This document shows, piece by piece, positions 3,909 to 64,000 of a stretch of 64,000 nucleotides of DNA (position 1 is its first letter; each line of letters opens with the position of its first letter). The notes below the pieces were generated by a model. That model made no database searches, had not been told where the DNA came from, and saw nothing but the letters and a program-made list of their open reading frames with translations. This stretch comes from Alphaproteobacteria bacterium. Lineage in GTDB: Bacteria; Pseudomonadota; Alphaproteobacteria; CALKHQ01. The DNA lies in NCBI GenBank assembly GCA_965227515.1, contig CBDDFZ010000001.1, positions 3,552,001 through 3,616,000 of the forward strand, in the 5' to 3' direction. The position numbers were made by a program, and so were the translations under genes.

Positions 3909-3964
3909 CTCGTCCTCCCGCGCCTGGCACTGTGCTTGTTCTTCGTATGTCGCCAGAATCTGCC

Positions 3965-4026
3965 TTGACTCAACGGTAAACCGGCGCCTACTCTTCGGCA
4001 AGAGAAAAACATTTCGCAATGCGAAA
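3965..4026 (+). promoter_or_regulatory. Putative sigma70 promoter plus IclR-type operator
   Basis: TTGACT (3965) - 18 bp - TACTCT (3989), then the palindrome TTTCGCA-A-TGCGAAA at 4012-4026, in the divergent gap beside the IclR-containing operon. Confidence 0.6.
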
Positions 4027-4055
4027 ACATGCTTGCGAACGATTGGGGAGGCCGA

Positions 4056-4868
4056 ATGCGGATCGGGAAGCAGGATCAAGCCTTCACCGCCATCGCGACA
4101 TCCGATGCCGAGAGCATCACGGTGCGCGGGCAGGACCTGTGCCGCGACCTGATCGGCAAGATCGATTTCACCGACTATTTCTGGCTGCTGGTCCTGGGCG
4201 AGCGCCCCACCGAACCGCAGCGCAAGATGATGGATGCCTGCCTGGTCGCGATTGCCGAGCACGGGTTGGTGCCGTCGGTGCAGGCGGCCCGCATGACGCT
4301 CGCCGCGGGACCGGACGCCTGGCAGGGCGCGATGGCCGCCGGCCTGCTCGGCATGGGCAGCGTTGTCGCCGGCAGTTCGGAGGCGGCCGCCCTCTTCCTG
4401 CATGAGGTGATGGAAAAGGCGAAGGCCGACGGCACCGATATCGAGGCCGCCGCCATCGGCAGCCTGAACGACCTGAAGGCGGCGAGGAAGAAGGTGCCGG
4501 GGCTTGGCCACCCGCAGCACAATGCGGGCGACCCGCGGGCCAACCGCCTGCTCGCCATCGCCGACGAGCTTGGCGTCTCCGGCGACCATGTCGGCACTCT
4601 GCGCACCCTGGCCGAGCACGCACCCGGCATCATCAACCGGCCGCTGCCGATCAATGTTTCCGGCGCGATTCCGGCGGTGATCCTGGACGCCGGCTGGCCG
4701 TTGCAGGCGATCAAGGCGGTGCCGCTGCTGGCCCGCGCGGCCGGCCTGTCCGCCCACCTCTACGAGGAGAGCCTGCGCTCCATCGGCTTCATCATGTCCC
4801 ACAAGGCCGACCTCGCCATCGACTATGACGGCAAGGCGTCCGAGAACCCCAAAGAAGCCGCGGAGTAG
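4056..4868 (+). CDS. Citryl-CoA lyase / citrate synthase-like protein
   Basis: ITVRGQDLCRDLIGK, AEHGL, VPGLGHPQH..GDPR, LPINVSGA, RAAGLSAH; GGAGG RBS before ATG 4056. Confidence 0.85.
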   Translation: MRIGKQDQAFTAIATSDAESITVRGQDLCRDLIGKIDFTDYFWLLVLGERPTEPQRKMMDACLVAIAEHGLVPSVQAARMTLAAGPDAWQGAMAAGLLGMGSVVAGSSEAAALFLHEVMEKAKADGTDIEAAAIGSLNDLKAARKKVPGLGHPQHNAGDPRANRLLAIADELGVSGDHVGTLRTLAEHAPGIINRPLPINVSGAIPAVILDAGWPLQAIKAVPLLARAAGLSAHLYEESLRSIGFIMSHKADLAIDYDGKASENPKEAAE

Positions 4869-53053: not shown

Positions 53054-53887
53054 CTAAAACACCGCCGGCGATTTCCAGCGTACGACCCGGCGCTCCGCCA
53101 TGCCGACCATGCTGAACAGCAGCACGGCCAGCCCGGCGCACACGAACACGGTCGCGTAGAGCAGCGGCGAGCGATAATTGTAGGTGGCCTCGATGATCAG
53201 GGCGCCGAGGCCGAAATTCGACCCGATCCATTCGCCGACCACAGCACCGATCACGCAGGTGGTGCTGGCGATCTTCAGGGCGGCGAACAGGAACGGCAAC
53301 GAGCTCTGCATCCTGAGCTTCCACAGCACTTCGCCCTTGGTGGCCGAGAGCACGCGCATCAGGTCCAGCATCGCCGGGCTCACCGCCTTCAGCCCGCGCA
53401 CCATGTTGACCAGGGTCGGGAAGAAGCAGATCAGCGCCGCAATCACGATCTTCGGCGCGTAGCCGTTGCCCAGCAGCAGCACCAGGATCGGCGCGATGGC
53501 GATGATCGGGATCGTATTGATGAACACCGCGATCGGGTAGACTGCCGCCTCGGCGGTGCGGTTGTGAACGAACCAGATCGCCAGCCCTATGGCGACCGCA
53601 TTGCCGACGATGAAGCCGATCAGCGCCTCCATCAGGGTCGGCCAGAAGTTGTTGAGCAACATCAGGCCGTCGGTCCAGAACGTCTGCAGGATCAGCCAAG
53701 GCGTCGGCGCGATGAAGGTCGGCACCTCGAACACGTCGCAGCCGACCTGCCACAGGATCAGCAGGCAGGCCACCGTCACCAGGGCTGGCCAGCGCGCCGG
53801 GCGCCCCTGCGGCGATGCCTTCTTGCGCGTGGCCGTGACGGCAGCGGTGGTGGCGCCGGCCACATCCCGCTCGATAGCGGCGCTCAT
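53054..53887 (-). CDS. NitT/TauT-family ABC permease
   Basis: IPIIAIAP, FFPTLVN, SSLPFLFAALK, GAVVGEW; start re-called. Confidence 0.9.
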   Translation of the reverse strand: MSAAIERDVAGATTAAVTATRKKASPQGRPARWPALVTVACLLILWQVGCDVFEVPTFIAPTPWLILQTFWTDGLMLLNNFWPTLMEALIGFIVGNAVAIGLAIWFVHNRTAEAAVYPIAVFINTIPIIAIAPILVLLLGNGYAPKIVIAALICFFPTLVNMVRGLKAVSPAMLDLMRVLSATKGEVLWKLRMQSSLPFLFAALKIASTTCVIGAVVGEWIGSNFGLGALIIEATYNYRSPLLYATVFVCAGLAVLLFSMVGMAERRVVRWKSPAVF

Positions 53888-54696
53888 CAGCATTCCTCCA
53901 GCAGCGCGCGCAGCTTGGCCGTGACCTCGATGAACTCCATCGTGTCGCGCACCGCCAAGCGGCGTGGGGTGCCGAGATCGACCGGTACGAAGGCGTGGAC
54001 CCGGCCGGGGTGCGAGGCCAGCATCAACACGCTCTGGCCCAGGAACGCCGCCTCCGGGATGGAGTGGGTCACGAACACGATGGTGGTCCCGGTCTCCTGC
54101 CAGATCCGCAGCAGTTCCTCGTTCAGCTTGTCGCGGGTGATCTCGTCCAGCGCACCGAACGGCTCGTCCATCAGCAGGATGCGCGGGCGCACCACCAGCG
54201 CGCGGGCAATCGCCACCCGTTGACGCATGCCGCCGGACAGCTCGTCCGGGTAGGCCAGTTCGCGGCCGGAAAGCCCGACCATGGCCAGCAGCGCTTCCGG
54301 GTCTTCGTGGTCGGGACTGCCGCCGCCGACTTCCAGCGGCAGGCGCACATTGTCGATGACCGTGCGCCAGGGCAGCAGCGTCGCCTCTTGGAAGACGAAG
54401 GCGAAGTCGCGCTCGCGCCTGGCCTGCCAGGGCTCGCGGCCGTGGACGACGATGTTGCCGTCGGTGATCGGCACAAGGTCGGCGATGGCTCGCAGCAGGG
54501 TCGACTTCCCACAACCGGACGGACCCAGCATGGTGACCAGCCCGCCCTCCGGAATGTCGACGCTGACGTCCTGCAGCGCCGTCACGCCGTCGACGTCGTC
54601 GCCGAACCGGACGGTGACGTTCTCGACCGAGATGGCGGTGCGCCCCACTTCGGACGCACCGGCCATATCAGTGGTTGCGGTCATGGCGGCCGACAC
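53887..54696 (-). CDS. NitT/TauT-family ABC ATPase
   Basis: [34 protein letters not shown]. Confidence 0.93.
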
Positions 54697-54726
54697 GGCG
54701 ACGGACCCTGGCTGGCGCGCGGCGGG

Positions 54727-55764
54727 CTAGCCCTTGCGCGCCTCGGCGGTGGCGTCCAGGATCGCGGTGGTCATCACGTCATCCACCGTCGGCACGTCGC
54801 CGCTGAACTGCTCCAACGCGGCATAGGTGTCGATCTGGGCCCGCCAGTTGGCCGGGTCCATCACACCCCAGCCGCCGGCATCGGTGGCATCGCCGAAGCT
54901 GAAGCCGATCACCGGGCCGACCGCTTGCAACTCGGAATCGCGGTCCAGGTTCGGGAACATCGCGACCAGCAGGTCGACCGCCTCTTCCTGGTTGTCGCGG
55001 GCGTATTGCCAGCCGCGCGCCGAACCGCGGATGAAGCCGGCCAGCACGTCGCCGTGCTCTTCGAGCATGTCGTCGGTGCTGAAATAGACATTGGCGTAGA
55101 GCTGGATGCCGGCGTCCCACAGCATCATGTCGACCCGGTCCTCGCCGAGCACGCTGAGCGCGCCGACATTGGTCTGCCAGCCGGTGACGGCGGCGACCTG
55201 GCCGGTCACGAGCTGGTTCATGTCGCTGCCCATGGGAATGACCTCGACATCGTCCTCGCTGATACCGTTGGCGGCCAACAGCGCGCGCAACAGGATTTCG
55301 GCGGTCGGCTGGGTCGCGATGGTCTGGCCGACCATGTCGGCGGGCTCGCGAATCGGGTTGCCCTCAAGCGAGAAGTACGTGAACGGGTGCTTCTGGTAGC
55401 CGGCGGCAATCGCCTTGATCGGAATGCCGGCGGAGCGCGCCAGCATCAGCGCCGGGCTGGACGAGGTCTGGCCGCCTTCCTTGGCGCCGGAACCGACGGC
55501 GGCGACACCGTCCACGTTCGGCCCGCCGGGGGTGATGGAAAGCTCGACGCCCTCCTCCGCGTAGAAGCCCTTGGCAATGCCGACCACTTCGCCGATCACG
55601 CCGTTACTGGCCAGCCAGCCAAGCTGCAGGTCGACCTCGGCCATGTCCTGGGCACGGGCGCCCACGGTCACCAGGCTGGCGACCGATGCCGGCATTGCGC
55701 CGGCCAAACCTGCGCTGCCAAGACCCTTCAGGACATTGCGGCGATGCGTACGCGTCTTCAACAT
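54727..55764 (-). CDS. NMT1/THI5-like ABC substrate-binding protein with Tat signal
   Basis: HRRNVLK; LQLGW, KGFYAEEGVEL, PGGP. Confidence 0.87.
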   Translation of the reverse strand: MLKTRTHRRNVLKGLGSAGLAGAMPASVASLVTVGARAQDMAEVDLQLGWLASNGVIGEVVGIAKGFYAEEGVELSITPGGPNVDGVAAVGSGAKEGGQTSSSPALMLARSAGIPIKAIAAGYQKHPFTYFSLEGNPIREPADMVGQTIATQPTAEILLRALLAANGISEDDVEVIPMGSDMNQLVTGQVAAVTGWQTNVGALSVLGEDRVDMMLWDAGIQLYANVYFSTDDMLEEHGDVLAGFIRGSARGWQYARDNQEEAVDLLVAMFPNLDRDSELQAVGPVIGFSFGDATDAGGWGVMDPANWRAQIDTYAALEQFSGDVPTVDDVMTTAILDATAEARKG

Positions 55765-56079: not shown

Positions 56080-56967
56080 ATGGACAGACGCGATTTCATG
56101 GCAGGGACTGCCGCAGCCATTGCGGCGGGCAGCGTTGCCCTGCCCGTGGGCGCGACTCAGGAGACGACGGTTCCGCAGCCGTACGACTGGAACGCCTATC
56201 CGCCGATGGCGCCCGGCCAGCGCGCCGAATACATCGAATGGATGGTCGAGAATCGTGGCGAGGACCCGTACTACCTGGGCCTGCACTGGGACCGTTATCA
56301 GGTGCTGGTCAACAACCGCGACCTGCTGGACGACCGCAACAAACGCGCCTTCCTGATGCTGCCGCGCGAGGAGTTCTGCCTGGAGCGCAATTTGAGCCGC
56401 GCCTATGAGCACGCCTTCCTCGACATCGGCTATGGGGTCACCATCTCCGGCCCGCACCTGGTCGGCCGTATGACCACCTCCATCGACGTCCAGTTCGGCG
56501 AGAAGGTGCTGGAGGTCGGCACCGGCTCCGGCTACCAGTCCGCCTACCTGGCCAATTTGACCGACAAGGTGTGGACCATCGAGATCATCGCCCCGCTGGC
56601 CGAGCGCACGCGCGGCGTCCACGACAACCTGATCGCCCGGGGCTACACCGAATACCAGGCGATCTCATCGAAGAACGCCGACGGCTATTATGGGTGGGAG
56701 GACGCAGGCCCTTTCGACAAGATCATCGTGACCTGCGGCATCGACCATGTGCCGCCGCCGCTGCTGCAACAGCTCAAGGTCGGCGGCATCATGGTGATCC
56801 CGGTCGGGCCGCCCGGCGCCCACCACGTGCTCAAGATCATCAAGGAACAGGCCGAGGACGGCACCGTCCGGGTCAATCGCACCGACATCTATGGCGGGCG
56901 CGTCGTGCCGTTCGTGCCCTTCACCAAGCTGGAGGGCGACGAGATCGTCGGCGTCCACCACCAGTAG
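56080..56967 (+). CDS. pcm: Protein-L-isoaspartate O-methyltransferase (PIMT) family protein with Tat signal peptide, copy 1
   Basis: MDRRDFM...LPVGA signal; PREEF, VTISGP, KVLEVGTGSGYQSA, GPFDKIIVTCG, LLQQLKVGGIMVIPVG, FVPF. Confidence 0.88.
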   Translation: MDRRDFMAGTAAAIAAGSVALPVGATQETTVPQPYDWNAYPPMAPGQRAEYIEWMVENRGEDPYYLGLHWDRYQVLVNNRDLLDDRNKRAFLMLPREEFCLERNLSRAYEHAFLDIGYGVTISGPHLVGRMTTSIDVQFGEKVLEVGTGSGYQSAYLANLTDKVWTIEIIAPLAERTRGVHDNLIARGYTEYQAISSKNADGYYGWEDAGPFDKIIVTCGIDHVPPPLLQQLKVGGIMVIPVGPPGAHHVLKIIKEQAEDGTVRVNRTDIYGGRVVPFVPFTKLEGDEIVGVHHQ

Positions 56968-57057
56968 ACAACTTACCGCCCGCAACAGAGGAATGCTTTC
57001 CTTTGCGCCCGGCGCGATGCGATGTTACGCGCAGCGGACTCAGAGTCGGAGGATACC

Positions 57058-57942
57058 GTGAAAAGACGAGACTTCATGGCGGGTACTGCCGCCGTCGCCG
57101 CGGGCAGTATGGCCCTGCCCGGACTTGCCAGCGCGGAGACGTCCGTTCCGCTCCCGTACAATTGGGAAGCCTATCCGCCGATGGAGCTGGGCCAGCGCGC
57201 CGAATACATCGAGTGGATGGCGCAGTATCGCGGTGAGGACCCGCACTTCCTGGGCCTGCATTGGGACCGCTACGAGCACCTGATCGGTCACCGCGACTTG
57301 CTGGACGACCGCACCAGGCGGGCCTTTCTGATGACGCCGCGCGAGGAATTCTGCCTGGAGCGCAACCTTGGCCGCGTCTATGACCGCGCTTTCCTCGACA
57401 TCGGCTGGGGCGTGACCATTTCCGGCCCGAATCTGGTCGGCCGGATGACCAGCTCGATCAAGGTCGACTTCGGCGAGAAGGTGCTGGAGGTCGGCACCGG
57501 CTCCGGCTACCAGTCGGCCATGCTGTCCAACCTGACCGACAAGGTGTGGACCATCGAGATCATCGCGCCGCTGGCCGAGCGCACGCGCGGCATCTACGAC
57601 GCGCTGATCGAGCGCGGCTATACCGAGTACGGCGCCATCACCAGCAAGAACGCCGACGGCTACTATGGCTGGGAAGAGGCCGCCCCGTTCGACAAGATCG
57701 TCGTCACCTGCGGCATCGACCACGTGCCGCCGCCGCTGCTGCAGCAGCTCCGGGTCGGCGGCATCATGGTGATTCCGGTCGGTCCGCCCGGTGGCCACCA
57801 CGTGCTGAAGATCGTCAAGGAACAGGCCGATGACGGTACGGTCCGCGTCGCCCGGTCCGACATCTACGGCGGCAGCATCGTGCCGTTCGTGCCCTTCACC
57901 AAGCTGGAAGGGGACGAAATCGTCGGTGTCCACCACCAGTAG
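57058..57942 (+). CDS. pcm: PIMT family protein with Tat signal peptide, copy 2 (tandem paralog)
   Basis: GTG start after GGAGG; KRRDFM...LASA signal; same PIMT motifs; identical C-terminus EGDEIVGVHHQ. Confidence 0.88.
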   Translation: MKRRDFMAGTAAVAAGSMALPGLASAETSVPLPYNWEAYPPMELGQRAEYIEWMAQYRGEDPHFLGLHWDRYEHLIGHRDLLDDRTRRAFLMTPREEFCLERNLGRVYDRAFLDIGWGVTISGPNLVGRMTSSIKVDFGEKVLEVGTGSGYQSAMLSNLTDKVWTIEIIAPLAERTRGIYDALIERGYTEYGAITSKNADGYYGWEEAAPFDKIVVTCGIDHVPPPLLQQLRVGGIMVIPVGPPGGHHVLKIVKEQADDGTVRVARSDIYGGSIVPFVPFTKLEGDEIVGVHHQ

Positions 57943-57999: not shown

Positions 58000-60675
58000 A
58001 TGACCACTCTTGCGGCCGCGAGCGAGCGGTACATCAGCACGCCGCGGCCGTCGCTCCTGCTCTATCTCGCCATGGGCCTCGTCGCCGGGGCCGTCATTGC
58101 GTACCAGATTTTCATCATGCGGGTCTTCGCGGTGGGGAGCTGGACCCACTTCGGCTCGTTCGTCGTCGCCCTCGCCATGCTCGGCTTCGGCCTGGCCAGC
58201 GCGGTGATGGCGCTGTCGAAGGAGTTCTTCCAGCGCCGATGGCGCGGCGTGACGACCGTGTCGGTGGTCCTGTTCGGCCCGCTGATGGCCGGTTGCCAAA
58301 TCGTGGCGCAGCAGTACCCGTTCAACCCGATCTTCCTGGTCTCAGATCCGGCGCAGAGCTGGAACCTGGCAACCAACTTCGTTCTCTATTTCCTACCGTT
58401 CTTCGCCGCCGCCGTCTTCATCGGCACCGTGTTCCTGAAGACCTCCCAGGTCTTCGGACGGGTCTATTTCGCCGACCTGCTGGGTGCCGGGCTTGCCGGC
58501 CTGCTCATCCTCGGCGGCATGTTCCTGTTCCCGCCGGAACACCTGATCGTCGTGCCGCTGACGGTCTGGTTCATCGGCGCACTGTGCTGGCTGAAGTGGA
58601 TCGAAGGCCGCGCGAGCTTTGCATGCCTTATCGTTGCCGCCATTCTTTCGGCCGGGCTGCATGCCGTGCCGCCGCGTGCCGGCGACCTCGTCGATGCGCT
58701 CGGCCTGCGCGACGTGTTCCCGACCGCCGAGAATCTGCCGCACATCGCGGTGTCCGACTACAAGGGCGTTTCCTACGCGCGCAACTTCCCGGACTCCGAG
58801 CGCGTCTATTCGGACATCTCGCCGTTCGGCGACCTGCAAATCTACCAAAGCTCGTACCTGCATTTCGCGCCCGGCCTGTCCGACAACGCGGCTTTCAACA
58901 TCCCGGAGATGCCGTCGAACGCCTTCCTCGGCATGTACATCGACAGCGACGGGCCGAGCGGCATCATGCGCGAGCTGCCGGACGAACAGACGCTCTATTT
59001 CCGTTTCCTGCCGATGTACTACCCGTTCCTGGTCAAGGAGGATCCGTCGGTCTTCGTGGTCCAGTTCGGCGGCGGTATCTCCACGACCGTGGCGCTGCGC
59101 AGCGGTGCGTCGGACGTGACGGTGGCGGAGGCCAACCCTGCCGTGCTGAGCGTGATGGACGCGCCGCTTGTCCGCGACTTCACCGGCGACCTGCTGGGCG
59201 ACCCGCGCCTGACGGTGATCCCCTACGAGGGGCGCCTGTTCCTGGCCTCGACCGACCAGCGCTACGACATCATCGACTTGAGCCTCGCCGACTCCGTCGG
59301 GCTTTCCAGCCCTGGCGGCTTCGCCATCGCGGAGCGCTACGCCTACACCCGCGAGGCGATGAGCACGTATATGCGCGCGCTCGACGACGGGGGCATCCTG
59401 TCGGTCACGGTGTGGAACAAGGAGGAGCCGCCGAAGTCGGTGCTGCGCCTCTATGCCACCATGGCCGAGGCGGCGCGGGAGATCGATCCGGACAGCGTGG
59501 CGCAGTCGTTCTATGTCGCCGCCAACTACCTCTCCACCGCGACCGTGCTCTACAAGCGCGGCGGCTTCACGGACGAGGAGATCGCCATCCTCTCCGACAA
59601 CACCTACGCACTGTCGTTCGACGAGATATTCGCGCCGGGCATCGAGGTCGAGGGCGACGAGGCGCAGCTCCTGTCCGACTACCGGGCGCAGATCTTCGGC
59701 ATCGAAGATGGGGGCGATGGGTCGGGCGCCGATCCGATGGCGTGGATGGAAGACGACAGCGACCCGATGCTGGATCCCGTCTTCGAGGAGGGACCGGTGG
59801 TGATGCCGGCGACCTCGCTCGGCCGTTTCGCCTGGCAGGCGCTGGCCAACGACGACTGGGAGACCTTCTCGAGCACGTACGTTTTCGATGTGGACGGCCT
59901 GGACAACGACCGCCCCTATTTCGCGGCTTACGTGCGCCCGTCCGACCTGCCCGACACCCTCGACCGGCTGGAGCTGTTCCAGGACGACTGGGGCTATCTC
60001 GCGGTCTGGGGCACGCTGATCGTTGCCGGCATCGCGGCCCTGTTCCTGCTGTTGTTCCCGATCGTCTTCGGCTGGCGCGCCATCTTCAGCGCCTATCCCG
60101 GCAAGCTCGGCACCCTGCTCTACTTCGCCTGCCTCGGCTTCGGCTACATGCTGGTCGAGGTCGGGATGATCTCCAAGTTCATCCTGGCGCTGTCGACACC
60201 CACCGTCTCCGCCTCGGTGCTGATCACCGGCATGCTGGTCTTCTCCGGCCTCGGCAGCCTGCTGTCGGAGCGGTTCCTCGACCGCGCCAAGCAGGTGATG
60301 CCCTACGTCTTCGCGACCATCGGCGTGCTGCTGATCGGCTACAGCTTCGTCCTCGACTACGTGCTCGACTGGATCGGCACCTTCCCCTACGTCGTCCGCC
60401 TGGTGCTGTGCCTGGCCCTGATCGCGCCGCCGGCATTGCTGATGGGCTTCCCGCTTGCAACCGCCATGACCTGGCTCGGCCGGCTGGGCAAGGACCATCT
60501 GTTCATCTGGGCCTGGGGCATCAACGGCAGCTTCTCGGTCATCGGCTCGGCGGCGATCCCGGTGCTGGCGGTCAGCTTCGGCCTGACCTCGGTGATCCAG
60601 ATCGCCGGCATCGCCTACCTCATCGCCCTGCCCGCCTTCGTAGCGGTGTTGCTGCCGCTGCGCCGCCCGGCATGA
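58000..60675 (+). CDS. Polytopic membrane protein (~14 TM) with a central spermidine-synthase-like SAM-binding domain
   Basis: 7 N-terminal and 7 C-terminal hydrophobic segments; the central domain has VVQFGGG...VTVAEANP, EGRLFL, YDIIDL, YTREAM and LDDGGILSV. Confidence 0.8.
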   Translation: MTTLAAASERYISTPRPSLLLYLAMGLVAGAVIAYQIFIMRVFAVGSWTHFGSFVVALAMLGFGLASAVMALSKEFFQRRWRGVTTVSVVLFGPLMAGCQIVAQQYPFNPIFLVSDPAQSWNLATNFVLYFLPFFAAAVFIGTVFLKTSQVFGRVYFADLLGAGLAGLLILGGMFLFPPEHLIVVPLTVWFIGALCWLKWIEGRASFACLIVAAILSAGLHAVPPRAGDLVDALGLRDVFPTAENLPHIAVSDYKGVSYARNFPDSERVYSDISPFGDLQIYQSSYLHFAPGLSDNAAFNIPEMPSNAFLGMYIDSDGPSGIMRELPDEQTLYFRFLPMYYPFLVKEDPSVFVVQFGGGISTTVALRSGASDVTVAEANPAVLSVMDAPLVRDFTGDLLGDPRLTVIPYEGRLFLASTDQRYDIIDLSLADSVGLSSPGGFAIAERYAYTREAMSTYMRALDDGGILSVTVWNKEEPPKSVLRLYATMAEAAREIDPDSVAQSFYVAANYLSTATVLYKRGGFTDEEIAILSDNTYALSFDEIFAPGIEVEGDEAQLLSDYRAQIFGIEDGGDGSGADPMAWMEDDSDPMLDPVFEEGPVVMPATSLGRFAWQALANDDWETFSSTYVFDVDGLDNDRPYFAAYVRPSDLPDTLDRLELFQDDWGYLAVWGTLIVAGIAALFLLLFPIVFGWRAIFSAYPGKLGTLLYFACLGFGYMLVEVGMISKFILALSTPTVSASVLITGMLVFSGLGSLLSERFLDRAKQVMPYVFATIGVLLIGYSFVLDYVLDWIGTFPYVVRLVLCLALIAPPALLMGFPLATAMTWLGRLGKDHLFIWAWGINGSFSVIGSAAIPVLAVSFGLTSVIQIAGIAYLIALPAFVAVLLPLRRPA

Positions 60676-61625
60676 GGGTGCGCGCAGCGCTGGCCTGCGC
60701 TGCCATGCTGTCCATCACCGCCGCCGATGGGGAGGCCCGGCCCGTGGCCCAAAGCCTGACCGAAATCGTCCCGTTCGACACCTACGCCTTCCCGTACGAC
60801 GGCATCAGCCCGATCACCGACCAGCCGTTCCTGGATGTGATCGAGGATGGGCGGCGCGGCCACACGTCGCCGCGCGCCGGCCTGTTGTGGGAGGACGAGC
60901 ACTATTTCGACCGCAGCACGCTGCTGCACATCCCCGCCGGCTTCGATCCCGACGCGCCGGCGGCCCTGGTCGTGTTCTTCCATGGCAACCAGACCATCCT
61001 GGAGCGCGATGTCGTTGGCCGCCAGCGGGTGCCGGCCCAGCTCGAGGCATCGGGCCTGAACGCGGTGCTGGCGGCACCGCAGCTTGCCTATGACGCGCCC
61101 GATTCCAGCGCCGGCGGCTTCTGGCGGCCGCGCGCGTTCCAGCAATGGCTGAGCGAGGCGTCGGCCCGGCTGGCCGGCATGCTTGGCGACCACGACCTGT
61201 CGTCGCGCATCGACGATCTGCCGATCGTGCTGGTCGCCTACAGCGGCGGCTACAACCCGGCGGCCTATGCGTTGTCGGTCGGCGGCGCGCGCGGGCGCGT
61301 CTGCGGCACGATCCTGCTCGACGGCCCCTATGACGACGAGGAAGCCTTCGTCGACTGGATCGCGCGCCGTGGCGACGGCTTCTTCATCAGCGCCCACTCG
61401 AAGTCCGCCTCGGAAAGCAACGAGGAACTGCGCACCCTGTTGACGGCGCGCGGCATTCCCTTCCAACAGGTCGCGCGCGACCCCCATCCGGCGCCGGGCG
61501 CGGTGACTTTCCTGGACGTCGGCGAGGATGTGCCGCACGAGGATTTCGTGACCCAGGCCTGGCGCCCCAATCCTCTGCAATGGTTCCTGAGCCAGCTTGC
61601 GGATCGGGAGCTCTGCGCCGGATAG
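60672..61625 (+). CDS. Putative secreted alpha/beta-hydrolase-fold protein
   Basis: ATG overlaps the upstream stop (ATGA); N-terminal signal-like segment; VVFFHGN, LAAPQ, VAYSGGY elbow, LLDG, late His (VPHE). Confidence 0.7.
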   Translation: MRVRAALACAAMLSITAADGEARPVAQSLTEIVPFDTYAFPYDGISPITDQPFLDVIEDGRRGHTSPRAGLLWEDEHYFDRSTLLHIPAGFDPDAPAALVVFFHGNQTILERDVVGRQRVPAQLEASGLNAVLAAPQLAYDAPDSSAGGFWRPRAFQQWLSEASARLAGMLGDHDLSSRIDDLPIVLVAYSGGYNPAAYALSVGGARGRVCGTILLDGPYDDEEAFVDWIARRGDGFFISAHSKSASESNEELRTLLTARGIPFQQVARDPHPAPGAVTFLDVGEDVPHEDFVTQAWRPNPLQWFLSQLADRELCAG

Positions 61626-61789: not shown

Positions 61790-63232
61790 ATGGCCGATTC
61801 CAAGCCCGCCGCCCAATCGCCCGATTACGTCGAGCGCTTCGAGGATGCCATCGAGCGCAACCGGCCGCGCATCGCCGACGCCAAGGCGGCGCTGGAGAAG
61901 GCGGGCGTGAAGTACGTGATGGCGTGCTGGATCGACCTGCACGGCCTGCCCAAGACCAAGCCGGTGCCGATGGCGGAGTTCGAGACGGTCTGCCTGGGCA
62001 AGGGGCCGCAGTTCGCCGTTCATTCGGTCTCGTTCGTGCCGGAGCTGTCGCCCGCGGATTCCGACCAGATCGTCGTGCCGGACCTGGACGCGGTCTATGT
62101 CTGCCCGTGGGACACCAGCATGGCGATGGTGTTCTCCGACCTCTACTGGGAGGGCGCGCCCTACAATGTGTGCCCGCGCCAGGCCTTGCGCCGCGCCATG
62201 CGCGATGCCCGTCAGGCCGGGTATGTCGGCTATGCCGGGGTCGAGCCCGAGTTCATCGTGATGCGCCACGACGAGGCCGGCCAGCCGGTGAAGGCGTTCG
62301 ACGACGATCCGCCGGAGGGCGTGCGCCCGCGCCGCCAGGCCTTTGGCTACGACGTGGAATACTCCATCGATTCCATGCCGTTCCTGAAGGACATGATCGA
62401 CATCCTGGGCGGGCTGGGCTGGGACCTGCGCGACGTGGTTGCCGAGGGCGCCTATTCCCAGTTCGAGCTCGATTTCGGTTACACGAACTTGTTGCAGATG
62501 GCCGACCGGCTGGCTTTCCTGCGCATCGTGCTGAAGGAGGTGGCCAAGAAGCACGGCATGTTCGTCACCTTCATGCCGAAGCCGACTACCGGCGACTGGC
62601 GCTCCGGCGCGCACATCAATTTCTCGCTGCGCAGCACCGCCACCCCCGAGGACAATCTGTTCCAGCAGGGCGACGGCTGGTCGCCGCAGGCCGGCCACGC
62701 GGTCGGCGGGTTGATGGCCCATGCCGAGGCGCTGACCGCCATCACCTGCCCGACGGTCAACTCCTATAACGGGCTGGTGCCGCGCGTCGGCGGGTTCGAG
62801 GGCGGCACCGTCACCTGGGCGCCGACCAACATCACCTACGGTCACAATAACCGCTCCGCGCAGTTCCGCCTGCCGCAGAACCGGTTCTGCATCGAGAACC
62901 GGGCGGCGGACATGACCATGAACCCCTACCTGGCCTTCGCCATGACCCTGACATCGGCGATCGAGGGCATCGAGAAGGGCATCGATCCCGGTCCGCCGAC
63001 CGACCGCGACCTCTACGCGATGACACGGGAGGAGTTCGACGAACTCGGTATTCGGCGGCTGCCGCGCAACCTGTTGCAGGCGACGGAGGCACTGGCCACC
63101 GACCCTCTGGCCACGCGGGTGCTGGGGCCGACGATGCTGAAGTCCTACCTCGCCTACAAGAACGACGAGTGGGAGCGTTACCACCAGGCGGTGACCGACT
63201 GGGAGGTGCAGGAGTATCTGAGGCTCTACTGA
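61790..63232 (+). CDS. Glutamine synthetase family ligase (GlnT/GmaS-like gamma-glutamylamide synthetase)
   Basis: [39 protein letters not shown]...NNRS, IENR. Confidence 0.85.
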
Positions 63233-64000
63233 TGGCCACCGCACCGGACTGCGAGGTCTTCGACCTCGGCGACGTGACGCTGCTGTCGGGCGAGGTGCTG
63301 CGCGGCGCGCGGCTGGCCTACAAGACCTATGGCGCGCTGGCGCCGGACGGCGGCAATGTGGTGGTGCTGCCGACCTTCTACACCGGCAGCCACATGCGCA
63401 ACGAAGGCTTCTTCGGCACCGGGCGCGCCATCGATCCGGCCCGCCACTTCATCGTCTCGATCAATATGTTCGGCAACGGCATCTCGTCGTCGCCGAGCAA
63501 CACGCCGGCCCCGCAGGACAGTCCGCGCTTCCCGCTGGTGACGTTGTGGGACAACATCGCCTGCCAGCACCGGCTGCTGACCGAGCGCCTGGGTGTGGAA
63601 CGCATCGCGCTCGTCGCCGGCTGGTCGATGGCCGGCTGCCAGGCCTATCAGTGGGGCGCGCAATACCCGGATATGGTCGACGCCATCCTGCCGTTCTGCG
63701 CTTCGGCCCGCACCTCGCCGCACAATTGGGTGTTCCTGGAGGGCGTGAAGGCGGCACTGTGCGCGGACCAGGGCTGGAAGGGCGGCGACTACGCTTCGCC
63801 ACCGGTCGCCGGGCTGAAGGCATTCGCGCGCGTCTATGCCGGCTGGGCCTATTCGCAGACCTTCTATCGCGAGGGGCTCTTCCGCCAGCTCGGCTTCGCG
63901 ACGCCGGAAGACCTGCTGGTCGACTGGGAGGACGACCACGCCACGAACTGGGATGCCAACGACCTGCTGGCCAAGCTCGCGACCTGGCAGGCCGGCGATA
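63232..64000 (+). CDS. Homoserine O-acetyltransferase (MetX)-like alpha/beta hydrolase, 3'-truncated by the window end
   Basis: Not in the ORF track. ATG overlaps the GS stop; [49 protein letters not shown]. Confidence 0.8.

Follow-up and report, generated by a model that had tools for sequence, protein, structure and literature searches.

Among the closest described systems is the fungal NHMT (AN4663), which is reported to combine seven transmembrane (TM) helices with a spermidine-synthase-like (SpdS-like) enzyme domain and to methylate His1 of secreted LPMOs, the TM part being needed for this function (PMC10349129). According to the same paper, spermidine synthases need the acidic residue of the motif GxG(D/E)G to bind decarboxylated S-adenosylmethionine (dcSAM), and a different residue at this position is the mark of a methyltransferase (PMC10349129). 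Plant Golgi GoSAMTs belong to the major facilitator superfamily (MFS) and are proposed to transport S-adenosylmethionine (SAM) to an exoplasmic compartment, where it would serve carboxyl methyl-esterification (bioRxiv 10.1101/2021.07.06.451061). In the present study, these and related systems were compared to the gene P0001 of an alphaproteobacterium, which is situated in a stretch of 64,000 nucleotides (contig CBDDFZ010000001.1 of assembly GCA_965227515.1, positions 3,552,001 to 3,616,000 of the forward strand; hereafter the window, from whose first letter all coordinates are counted). P0001 encodes a 14-TM protein with a spermidine-synthase-fold domain that is predicted to face the periplasm, and it is linked to genes encoding an exported PCMT-like methyltransferase and an exported serine hydrolase. 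Tentatively, we read P0001 as the protein in the membrane that supplies SAM within a module for periplasmic methylation consisting of these three proteins. The gene linkage and the exported partners suggest that bacteria may perform SAM-dependent methylation outside the cytoplasm.

The open reading frame (ORF) of P0001 (58000..60675, forward strand) comprises 891 amino acids and belongs to a large protein family. A word-indexed search in which 8000 candidates were scored returned 1944 relatives at E <= 0.001, the closest of them 60-85% identical to P0001. Furthermore, an exhaustive HMMER search against representatives of 50%-identity clusters detected 8327 representatives at E <= 0.001 and 2057 at E <= 1e-30, and P0001 is therefore a real gene and no chance ORF. 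The relatives are named "hypothetical protein", "spermidine synthase" and "predicted membrane-bound spermidine synthase" (the latter two by JGI) or "SAM-dependent methyltransferase" (by NCBI). Long spurious ORFs were also observed over 52-64 kb in alternative frames and on the opposite strand, as is typical of DNA with ~66% G+C; one of them (58239-61625, forward strand; 1128 aa) runs out of frame through P0001, and only its last 317 codons, which are those of the downstream gene P0004, are real.

The features of P0001 are the following:

58000..60675, forward strand: P0001, 14-TM protein with a predicted periplasmic spermidine-synthase-fold domain (ORF, hydropathy, AlphaFold2, homologues)
58054..58701, forward strand: N-terminal membrane block TM1-TM7, residues ~19-234 (AlphaFold2 helices, lysine and arginine bias, weak MFS-like Foldseek resemblance)
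58783..59559, forward strand: spermidine-synthase-like (class I methyltransferase) fold, residues ~262-520 (Foldseek, family profile)
59056..59079, forward strand: motif I, residues 353-360 VVQFGGGI, with Gly at the dcSAM-specific Asp/Glu of SpeE (SpeE alignment, residue frequencies)
59128..59130, forward strand: E377, the acidic residue ending beta-2, at the ribose-binding position in SpeE and methyltransferases
59281..59295, forward strand: residues 428-432 SLADS, with S428 at the first catalytic Asp of SpeE and D431 as the second Asp
59560..59979, forward strand: extra subdomain, predicted periplasmic, and acidic low-confidence linker, residues ~521-660 (~130 aa)
59980..60660, forward strand: C-terminal membrane block TM8-TM14, residues ~661-887 (hydropathy, AlphaFold2, lysine and arginine bias, conservation)

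By Kyte-Doolittle hydropathy, residues 18-225 of P0001 contain seven hydrophobic segments, ~226-663 are soluble, and 664-887 contain another seven hydrophobic segments. The arrangement originally read from the sequence, seven TM helices on either side of a soluble stretch (here of ~435 residues), was thus recovered by hydropathy and also by an AlphaFold2 model, which was calculated from an alignment of 96 sequences and reached a pLDDT of 90.8 and a pTM of 0.92. The model places the seven TM helices of the N-terminal block (N-block) at residues 19-46, 49-72, 81-103, 117-147, 149-173, 184-201 and 204-234, and a mixed alpha/beta domain between the two TM blocks. An even number of N-terminal TM helices, with which the domain would come to lie in the cytoplasm, was obtained in neither analysis, each of them giving seven. 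The C-terminal block (C-block) is divided by DSSP into six helices (661-696, 702-731, 734-792, 797-828, 832-860 and 862-887), of which the third (59 residues; 60199-60375) runs unbroken across two hydrophobic segments. We counted it as TM10 and TM11, by judgement rather than by measurement, because the charged segment SERFLDRAKQ between its hydrophobic stretches varies in length from 4 to 34 residues among the 96 homologues. Both a kinked hairpin and a long tilted helix are conceivable geometries for residues 734-792.

The positive-inside rule was applied to the same 96 homologues by counting lysine plus arginine as the mean per segment, the sides being putative. All basic loops quoted in the original prediction are present, and the sum amounts to ~14.5 for the putative cytoplasmic segments vs ~2.0 for the putative periplasmic loops:

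Putative cytoplasmic, first half: N-terminus 1.23; TM2-3 2.83; TM4-5 1.26; TM6-7 0.35
Putative cytoplasmic, second half: TM8-9 3.43; TM10-11 2.81; TM12-13 1.73; C-terminus 0.71
Putative periplasmic: TM1-2 0.04; TM3-4 1.19; TM5-6 0.29; TM9-10 0.11; TM11-12 0.17; TM13-14 0.20

Because of this bias both termini of P0001 are predicted to reside in the cytoplasm and the soluble domain in the periplasm. The signal peptides of the neighbouring PCMT and hydrolase, described below, support the external position of the domain independently, and together with the 7+7 TM helices they agree with the topology that had been proposed originally. If the topology were reversed, with the N-terminus outside, the domain would be cytoplasmic and P0001 an ordinary methyltransferase that faces the cytoplasm and is anchored twice in the membrane. 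The topology is a prediction, and the single DSSP helix at 734-792 renders the TM count of the C-block uncertain, which leaves some room for such an orientation. However, it would place all basic loops on the outside, against the lysine and arginine bias in 96 sequences, and the conserved partners are exported, so that we consider it very improbable.

The soluble domain of P0001 is homologous to SpeE and represents a true spermidine-synthase fold. This is established by the structural and the profile matches: of the 28 PDB matches listed for a Foldseek search with the full model, 27 belong to spermidine, thermospermine or polyamine synthases and the remaining one to a putative methyltransferase (E from 4.2e-6, TMt 0.5-0.6, identity 13-17%), and the family profile matches the SpeE of Thermus (1uir) at E 1.1e-14, all chains below E 0.02 being of the SpeE or methyltransferase type. 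The domain shares with the soluble SpeE enzymes (PDB 1uir, 1inl, 3o4f) the fold including its N-terminal beta-hairpin part, the acidic residue of beta-2, the adenine-side acidic residue, the second Asp of D-x-x-D, the YT-E motif and the flexible loop after beta-4. In contrast to SpeE it lies between two membrane blocks, is predicted to be outside the cytoplasm and lacks both the acidic residue of motif I and the first catalytic Asp.

These residues were counted in 10 close and 86 distant relatives (96 in total) after alignment to SpeE by HMMER. Motif I reads G-G-G-(D/E)-G in SpeE, G-x-G-G-G in the P0001 family and Q-F-G-G-G in the P0001 clade. The degeneracy of motif I, which had been pointed out from the sequence, was found in all ten close relatives (Q355-F356-G357-G358-G359); the distant relatives carry G-x-G-G-G, with G355 in 72/86, and the Gln found at the first glycine position is a genuine peculiarity of the P0001 clade. 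The family lacks the acidic residue by which GxG(D/E)G selects dcSAM, and has Gly, Thr or Ala instead: position 358 is Gly in 10/10 close relatives, and among the 86 distant ones it is Gly in 64, Thr in 13, Ala in 5 and Asp in 2. The family keeps the glycine loop (G357/G359), the acidic residue before R412 (E/D410; 10/10 close and 75/86 distant relatives) and, in line with the original prediction, the acidic residue of beta-2 (E377 in 10/10 close relatives; 81 Glu and 3 Asp among the 86 distant).

After beta-4, SpeE has a D-x-x-D-P motif whose first Asp is catalytic. In the P0001 family this Asp is missing, since all ten close relatives have S428 and the 86 distant ones most often have Ser (31), Pro (26), Ala (12) or Thr (5). 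The second Asp is kept as D431 in 10/10 close and 44/86 distant relatives, and T450 and E452 are conserved as well. The loop 435-439 after beta-4, the only internal low-confidence stretch of the core (pLDDT < 50), ends in the nearly invariant G439 (92/96). The extra subdomain is closed just before TM8 by a conserved RPYF motif, whose P639 is found in 96/96 sequences.

Because the dcSAM-specific acidic residue is replaced by Gly, Thr or Ala and the first catalytic Asp by Ser, Pro, Ala or Thr, it is concluded from the alignment that the domain would not act as an aminopropyltransferase, as had been surmised originally. Judging from the retained residues it probably still binds a SAM-type nucleoside.

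The older annotations, according to which P0001 would be a membrane-bound spermidine or polyamine synthase using dcSAM, are in agreement with the SpeE fold and with the JGI names of the relatives. Furthermore, residues 13-399 of the relative P0156 match positions 26-382 of 522 of NCBIfam PRK03612 at E 2.7e-12. The N-block and the domain are thus homologous to the corresponding N-terminal membrane block and SpdS domain of the "membrane-bound SpeE" type (PRK03612/COG4262, "membrane-bound polyamine aminopropyltransferase"). Spermine_synth was detected by Pfam in 10/15 members of an alignment (best E 1.4e-5), in which membrane or transporter families were detected in none. P0001 itself matches PRK03612 in its SpdS part at E 0.0058, but it remains below every curated cutoff, with 14.9 bits vs 22.9 for Pfam Spermine_synth (PF01564), 19.2 vs 260 for NCBIfam PRK00811 and 15.1 vs 472 for PRK03612. 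In addition to these scores the family differs from PRK03612 by ~130 extra residues, predicted periplasmic, by the second 7-TM block, by the family-wide loss of the SpeE catalytic acidic residues and by its linkage to an exported PCMT. Taking furthermore into account that dcSAM is made in the cytoplasm, whereas the domain is predicted to be periplasmic, and that its neighbours are a PCMT and a hydrolase and not polyamine genes, a function as synthase appears hardly credible.

The genes neighbouring P0001 encode the following exported proteins:

56080..56967, forward strand: P0002, exported PCMT-like methyltransferase, 295 aa, with the Tat-type signal RRDFMAG near its N-terminus
57022..57942, forward strand: P0003, second exported PCMT-like methyltransferase, 306 aa, with the Tat-type signal KRRDFMAG
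60672..61625, forward strand: P0004, secreted alpha/beta-hydrolase-like serine hydrolase, 317 aa (triad conservation, Atlas lead)

A locus scan with a 15-sequence alignment as query and one genome per species revealed 66 loci with P0001 orthologues (55-71% identical) in Alpha-, Beta- and Gammaproteobacteria, Acidobacteria and others. A PCMT-like gene is located on the same strand within 600 bp upstream of the orthologue in 50 of the 58 assessable loci, a P0004-like gene directly downstream in 50/56, and both occur together in 40/49. An all-against-all clustering of the ORFs from the 66 loci detected no fourth conserved neighbour in more than 23 loci, the larger clusters being the three cassette genes and artefacts of overlapping frames. 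In one of the loci without an adjacent PCMT (L065) a partial PCMT-like match (query residues 41-225) was found ~600 bp upstream, just beyond the 600-bp limit. On a plasmid of Rhizobium jaguaris (L068; 54% identity) the PCMT gene is divergent (3918-4781, reverse strand), and a search of 5 kb around it revealed no gene resembling P0004.

A second clade, ~29% identical to P0001 and annotated by NCBI as "SAM-dependent methyltransferase", was detected by tblastn against plasmids in Microvirga, Phyllobacterium, Sinorhizobium and Paraburkholderia. Its gene context, taken from plasmid records only, includes a PCMT gene directly upstream on the same strand in 7/7 loci. The three PCMTs examined from the seven loci all have Sec-type signal peptides, and the Sec-exported partners of this clade are shorter (242-250 aa) than those of the orthologue clade; two of the three (P0274 and P0276) score above the NCBIfam equivalog cutoff for genuine PIMTs (234 and 228 vs 188). 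Class I methyltransferase genes near loci of this clade were judged to be unrelated, the three that were translated having no signal peptide.

The upstream partners P0002 and P0003 are members of the PCMT family (Pfam PCMT E 1.9e-40, 139 bits, and E 1e-38, 134 bits, respectively, vs a cutoff of 20.3). Their SAM and substrate motifs are intact and can be aligned to solved PIMTs, which P0002 matches at E 1.7e-31 including the TIS-PH and EVGTGSGY motifs. Their scores against the NCBIfam equivalog PRK00312 (157 and 151) are below its cutoff of 188. Export is indicated by matches to the Pfam TAT_signal family (E 9e-4 for P0002, E 8e-3 for P0003) and, for P0002, to NCBIfam TAT_signal_seq (20.2 vs a cutoff of 16.7). 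Among 51 partner PCMTs of the orthologue loci a loose regular expression flagged 44 N-termini as Tat signals; on reading, ~40 of the 51 show RR-x-F/L followed by a hydrophobic stretch, and most of the remaining ones have Sec-like, lipobox or membrane-anchor N-termini, with that of L017 being unclear. While they resemble the cytoplasmic Pcm/PIMT enzymes in family and motifs, PCMTs of the P0002 type differ from them by the Tat or Sec signals, by an N-terminal extension of ~50 residues and by their pairing with a membrane protein and a secreted hydrolase.

P0002 and P0003 are tandem paralogues with 81% identity, whereas most of the 66 related loci have a single PCMT copy upstream, and P0002 is nearer to the orthologues (80-85% identity to those of L001 and L002, vs 71-72% for P0003). 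In locus L061 a second PCMT copy is found downstream of the hydrolase gene. The N-terminal extension is conserved in the PCMTs of the orthologue clade (P-Y-x-W-D ... NRGEDP ... W-D-R-Y; residues ~30-80 of P0002), as is a C-terminal tail (V-P-F-V-P-F-T-K-L-E-G-D; residues ~275-295), and the solved PIMT PDB 4o29 can be aligned to P0002 only from about residue 83. As a guess, these extensions might serve as a docking surface.

The downstream gene P0004 overlaps the stop codon of P0001 with its start (ATGA). No Pfam or NCBIfam family was assigned to its product and a PDB sequence search gave nothing below E 0.5, the Atlas lead being "alpha/beta hydrolase". At least 95% of 52 sequences share each of HG104-105, S191 (in Y-S-G-G-Y), D217 and H289, and the conservation of the latter three residues therefore points to the Ser-Asp-His triad of a serine hydrolase. 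P0004 carries a signal peptide and most of the printed N-termini of its homologues look like signal peptides. In the 1162-aa protein P0125 a P0001 homologue (48% identity) is joined to a P0004 homologue (35% identity, E 2e-44), either as a genuine fusion or because the gene call reads through the overlapping stop and start; the intervening hydrophobic segment, which resembles a signal peptide, could act as a 15th TM helix.

P0001 is the only conserved membrane protein of the module, its SAM-type fold is predicted to be periplasmic, and its membrane part is the most constrained region of the protein, with the polar residues Y156, E720, N842 and S846 and the glycines G750 and G752 each found in 96/96 sequences. 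The original prediction had regarded TM1-6 and TM9-14 as echoes of each other, like the two halves of an MFS transporter. This internal repeat was not confirmed beyond chance, as hhalign comparisons of the N-block with the C-block in local, low-mact and global modes gave probabilities of 0.2-0.4% and E-values of 0.14-0.24. Only a forced global alignment places E/Q36 of TM1 (Q36 in P0001, Glu in 63/86 distant relatives) on E720 of TM9, and D/N159 of TM5 on N842 of TM13.

Support for an MFS-like fold as such is weak and confined to the N-block. When the N-block was modelled alone from 26 sequences (pLDDT 84.5), 30 of the 43 Foldseek matches listed were MFS transporters, with probabilities up to 0.97 and TMq up to 0.50; they include SPNS2, LacY, ferroportin, OCT1, PepT1, NarK, AmpG and SLC37A2, the PDB entries being ones that we take to be MFS members. 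However, none of the matches reached E <= 0.001, and the two best by E-value were ZIP transporters (E 0.06-0.09, TM score ~0.2). At the sequence level, a Pfam search at E <= 10 returned only DUF5378 (E 0.0076) for the N-block, nothing for the C-block and MFS for neither, and PDB profile searches with each block at E <= 10 gave noise only (E ~1.4) and likewise no MFS. A feature search of the N-block in the ESM-Atlas provided leads below 0.9 only, in clusters with 16-24% MFS_1 and 12% Spermine_synth members. P0001 further differs from MFS proteins in having 14 instead of 12 helices and a 435-aa domain between the halves. The resemblance to MFS is thus a weak lead from structural modelling for TM1-6.

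Taken together, P0001 may act in the following way. TM1-6, and probably TM9-14, would be packed in a loosely MFS-like manner, with TM7 and TM8 as extra helices, and the 14 helices would hold the spermidine-synthase-fold domain in the periplasm. The membrane part may let SAM out of the cytoplasm and perhaps take back S-adenosylhomocysteine, and the periplasmic domain would hold the nucleoside at the membrane surface. There the exported PCMT, possibly in contact with P0001, could use SAM for the carboxyl methylation of isoaspartyl or aspartyl residues, and the hydrolase might attack either the methyl esters so formed or the substrates of the PCMT. A PIMT that is exported and has its SAM motifs intact requires SAM outside the cytoplasm, and a delivery by P0001 gains weight because the exported PCMT is encoded directly upstream in two clades that are only ~29% identical. 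The plant Golgi offers a functional parallel in its trio of MFS SAM transporter, carboxyl methyltransferases and methylesterases. The plant Golgi carboxyl methyltransferases are lumenal.

Several observations weigh against SAM delivery as the role of P0001. No transporter match was obtained for it in Pfam, NCBIfam or PDB sequence profiles, the resemblance of its N-block to MFS is weak, without a Foldseek match at E <= 0.001 and with ZIP transporters as the best two, and its internal repeat is not significant. The Gln and Phe of motif I in the P0001 clade could weaken SAM binding, and the conserved flexible loop after beta-4 together with the conserved D431 resembles an active site rather than a mere carrier. 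The adjacent PCMT is missing in 8/58 loci, of which the two inspected for their neighbours (L004 and L053) have unrelated genes upstream, and it is likewise missing next to the relatives from Legionella and Alkalihalophilus, which are 22-27% identical. The reading offers no explanation for the hydrolase; a direct hydrolysis of isoaspartyl methyl esters would undo the repair. Finally, Tat, which is used by most of the partners, exports folded proteins, so that a SAM-loaded PCMT acting in a single turnover is conceivable.

The latter point would permit a scenario without any SAM export, in which Tat exports the SAM-loaded PCMT and P0001, by means of a repurposed SpdS fold, for instance transports or senses a polyamine, lipid or peptide. 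The Tat motifs in ~40/51 partner PCMTs, the degenerate QFGGG of the P0001 clade and the lipid and organic-cation carriers (SPNS2, OCT1) among the MFS matches with the best probability and TM score would fit this scenario. However, ~11 of the 51 partners in the orthologue clade have no clear Tat motif, and the Sec-type export of the three distant-clade partners examined (of seven loci) means that SAM cannot leave the cytoplasm pre-bound to the enzyme. Since the nucleoside-binding residues of P0001 are conserved and a repair limited to a single turnover would presumably be very inefficient, we regard this scenario as improbable.

The main alternative arises from the comparison with NHMT. Both proteins have seven N-terminal TM helices followed by a SpdS-like domain (of seven beta-strands in NHMT; predicted to be exoplasmic in P0001), with another residue at the D/E position of GxG(D/E)G (Ile in NHMT, Gly in P0001), and NHMT, too, is annotated as a spermidine synthase family protein. 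P0001 could therefore itself be a periplasm-facing SAM-dependent methyltransferase, a bacterial counterpart of NHMT, with a membrane part that feeds SAM to the catalytic SpdS-like domain of the same protein. Exported substrates would then be shared by P0001, the PCMT and the hydrolase, and the latter two would need no SAM hand-over from P0001. The action of NHMT on secreted proteins and its need for the TM part, the flexible loop 435-439 with G439 in 92/96 sequences, the conserved D431, T450 and E452, the 8/58 loci and distant relatives without an adjacent PCMT, and the NCBI name of the relatives are all consistent with this explanation. On the other hand, D431 is Asp in only 44/86 distant relatives, no acceptor substrate is evident, and the tight pairing with a PCMT in two clades would be left unexplained. 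NHMT is furthermore a eukaryotic protein of the endoplasmic reticulum, 558 aa long, that has no second 7-TM block, no extra subdomain and no PCMT or hydrolase partners, and its 7TM sequence is reported only in Pezizomycotina, which makes the likeness to P0001 an analogy and not a demonstrated homology. The evidence allows SAM delivery and an active methyltransferase domain equally. We consider it rather unlikely that P0001 is such a counterpart of NHMT, and retain the delivery of SAM to a periplasmic module as a tentative reading.

The remaining genes around the cassette seem to be unrelated to it. Upstream, a divergent ABC system (53887-55764, reverse strand) comprises an NMT1/THI5-like binding protein (E 1.4e-45) and an ATPase; downstream, a glutamine-synthetase-like gene (61790-63232, forward strand; Gln-synt_C E 1.5e-90) and an alpha/beta-hydrolase-fold gene that is cut by the end of the window (63169-63999, forward strand) were identified. 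A scan for promoters and terminators did no better than shuffled sequences, with one promoter-like element vs 0.8 expected and four terminator-like elements vs 3.1.

Literature phrase searches, outside whose coverage most subscription journals lie, retrieved neither a periplasmic or extracytoplasmic methyltransferase nor a SAM exporter. Searches for an exported PIMT returned nothing relevant among the titles and the beginnings of abstracts, and the accessible part of a report on a PIMT longevity mutant does not mention export (PMC5705917). For membrane-bound spermidine synthases only the NHMT paper proved relevant among the texts retrieved, besides a genome note mentioning COG4262. P0001 and its partners consist of known folds throughout, and it is their combination and the implied chemistry outside the cytoplasm that appear to be undescribed.

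The periplasm is regarded as a compartment without SAM or ATP, and the handling of damage to long-lived envelope proteins is ascribed to proteolysis and to disulfide and methionine sulfoxide systems and not to methyl transfer. It is possible, although doubtful at present, that many Proteobacteria and Acidobacteria run a periplasmic SAM-dependent carboxyl methylation with an exported PIMT, a secreted serine esterase and a 14-TM SAM exporter or presenter, which would serve either isoaspartyl repair or an on/off cycle of methyl esters. If this were true, P0001 would represent the first bacterial SAM exporter within the first periplasmic methyltransferase system, in parallel to the plant trio of Golgi SAM transporter, pectin methyltransferase and pectin methylesterase. 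The analysis also corrects the widespread annotation "spermidine synthase" for those proteins that lack the SpeE catalytic residues. With a genuine PIMT that bears a signal peptide and a SAM-type fold predicted to lie outside, both an extracytoplasmic methyl chemistry and a route for SAM become testable in culturable carriers, which according to the record titles include Mesorhizobium loti, Xanthobacter autotrophicus, Prosthecomicrobium hirschii and Enhydrobacter aerosaccus.

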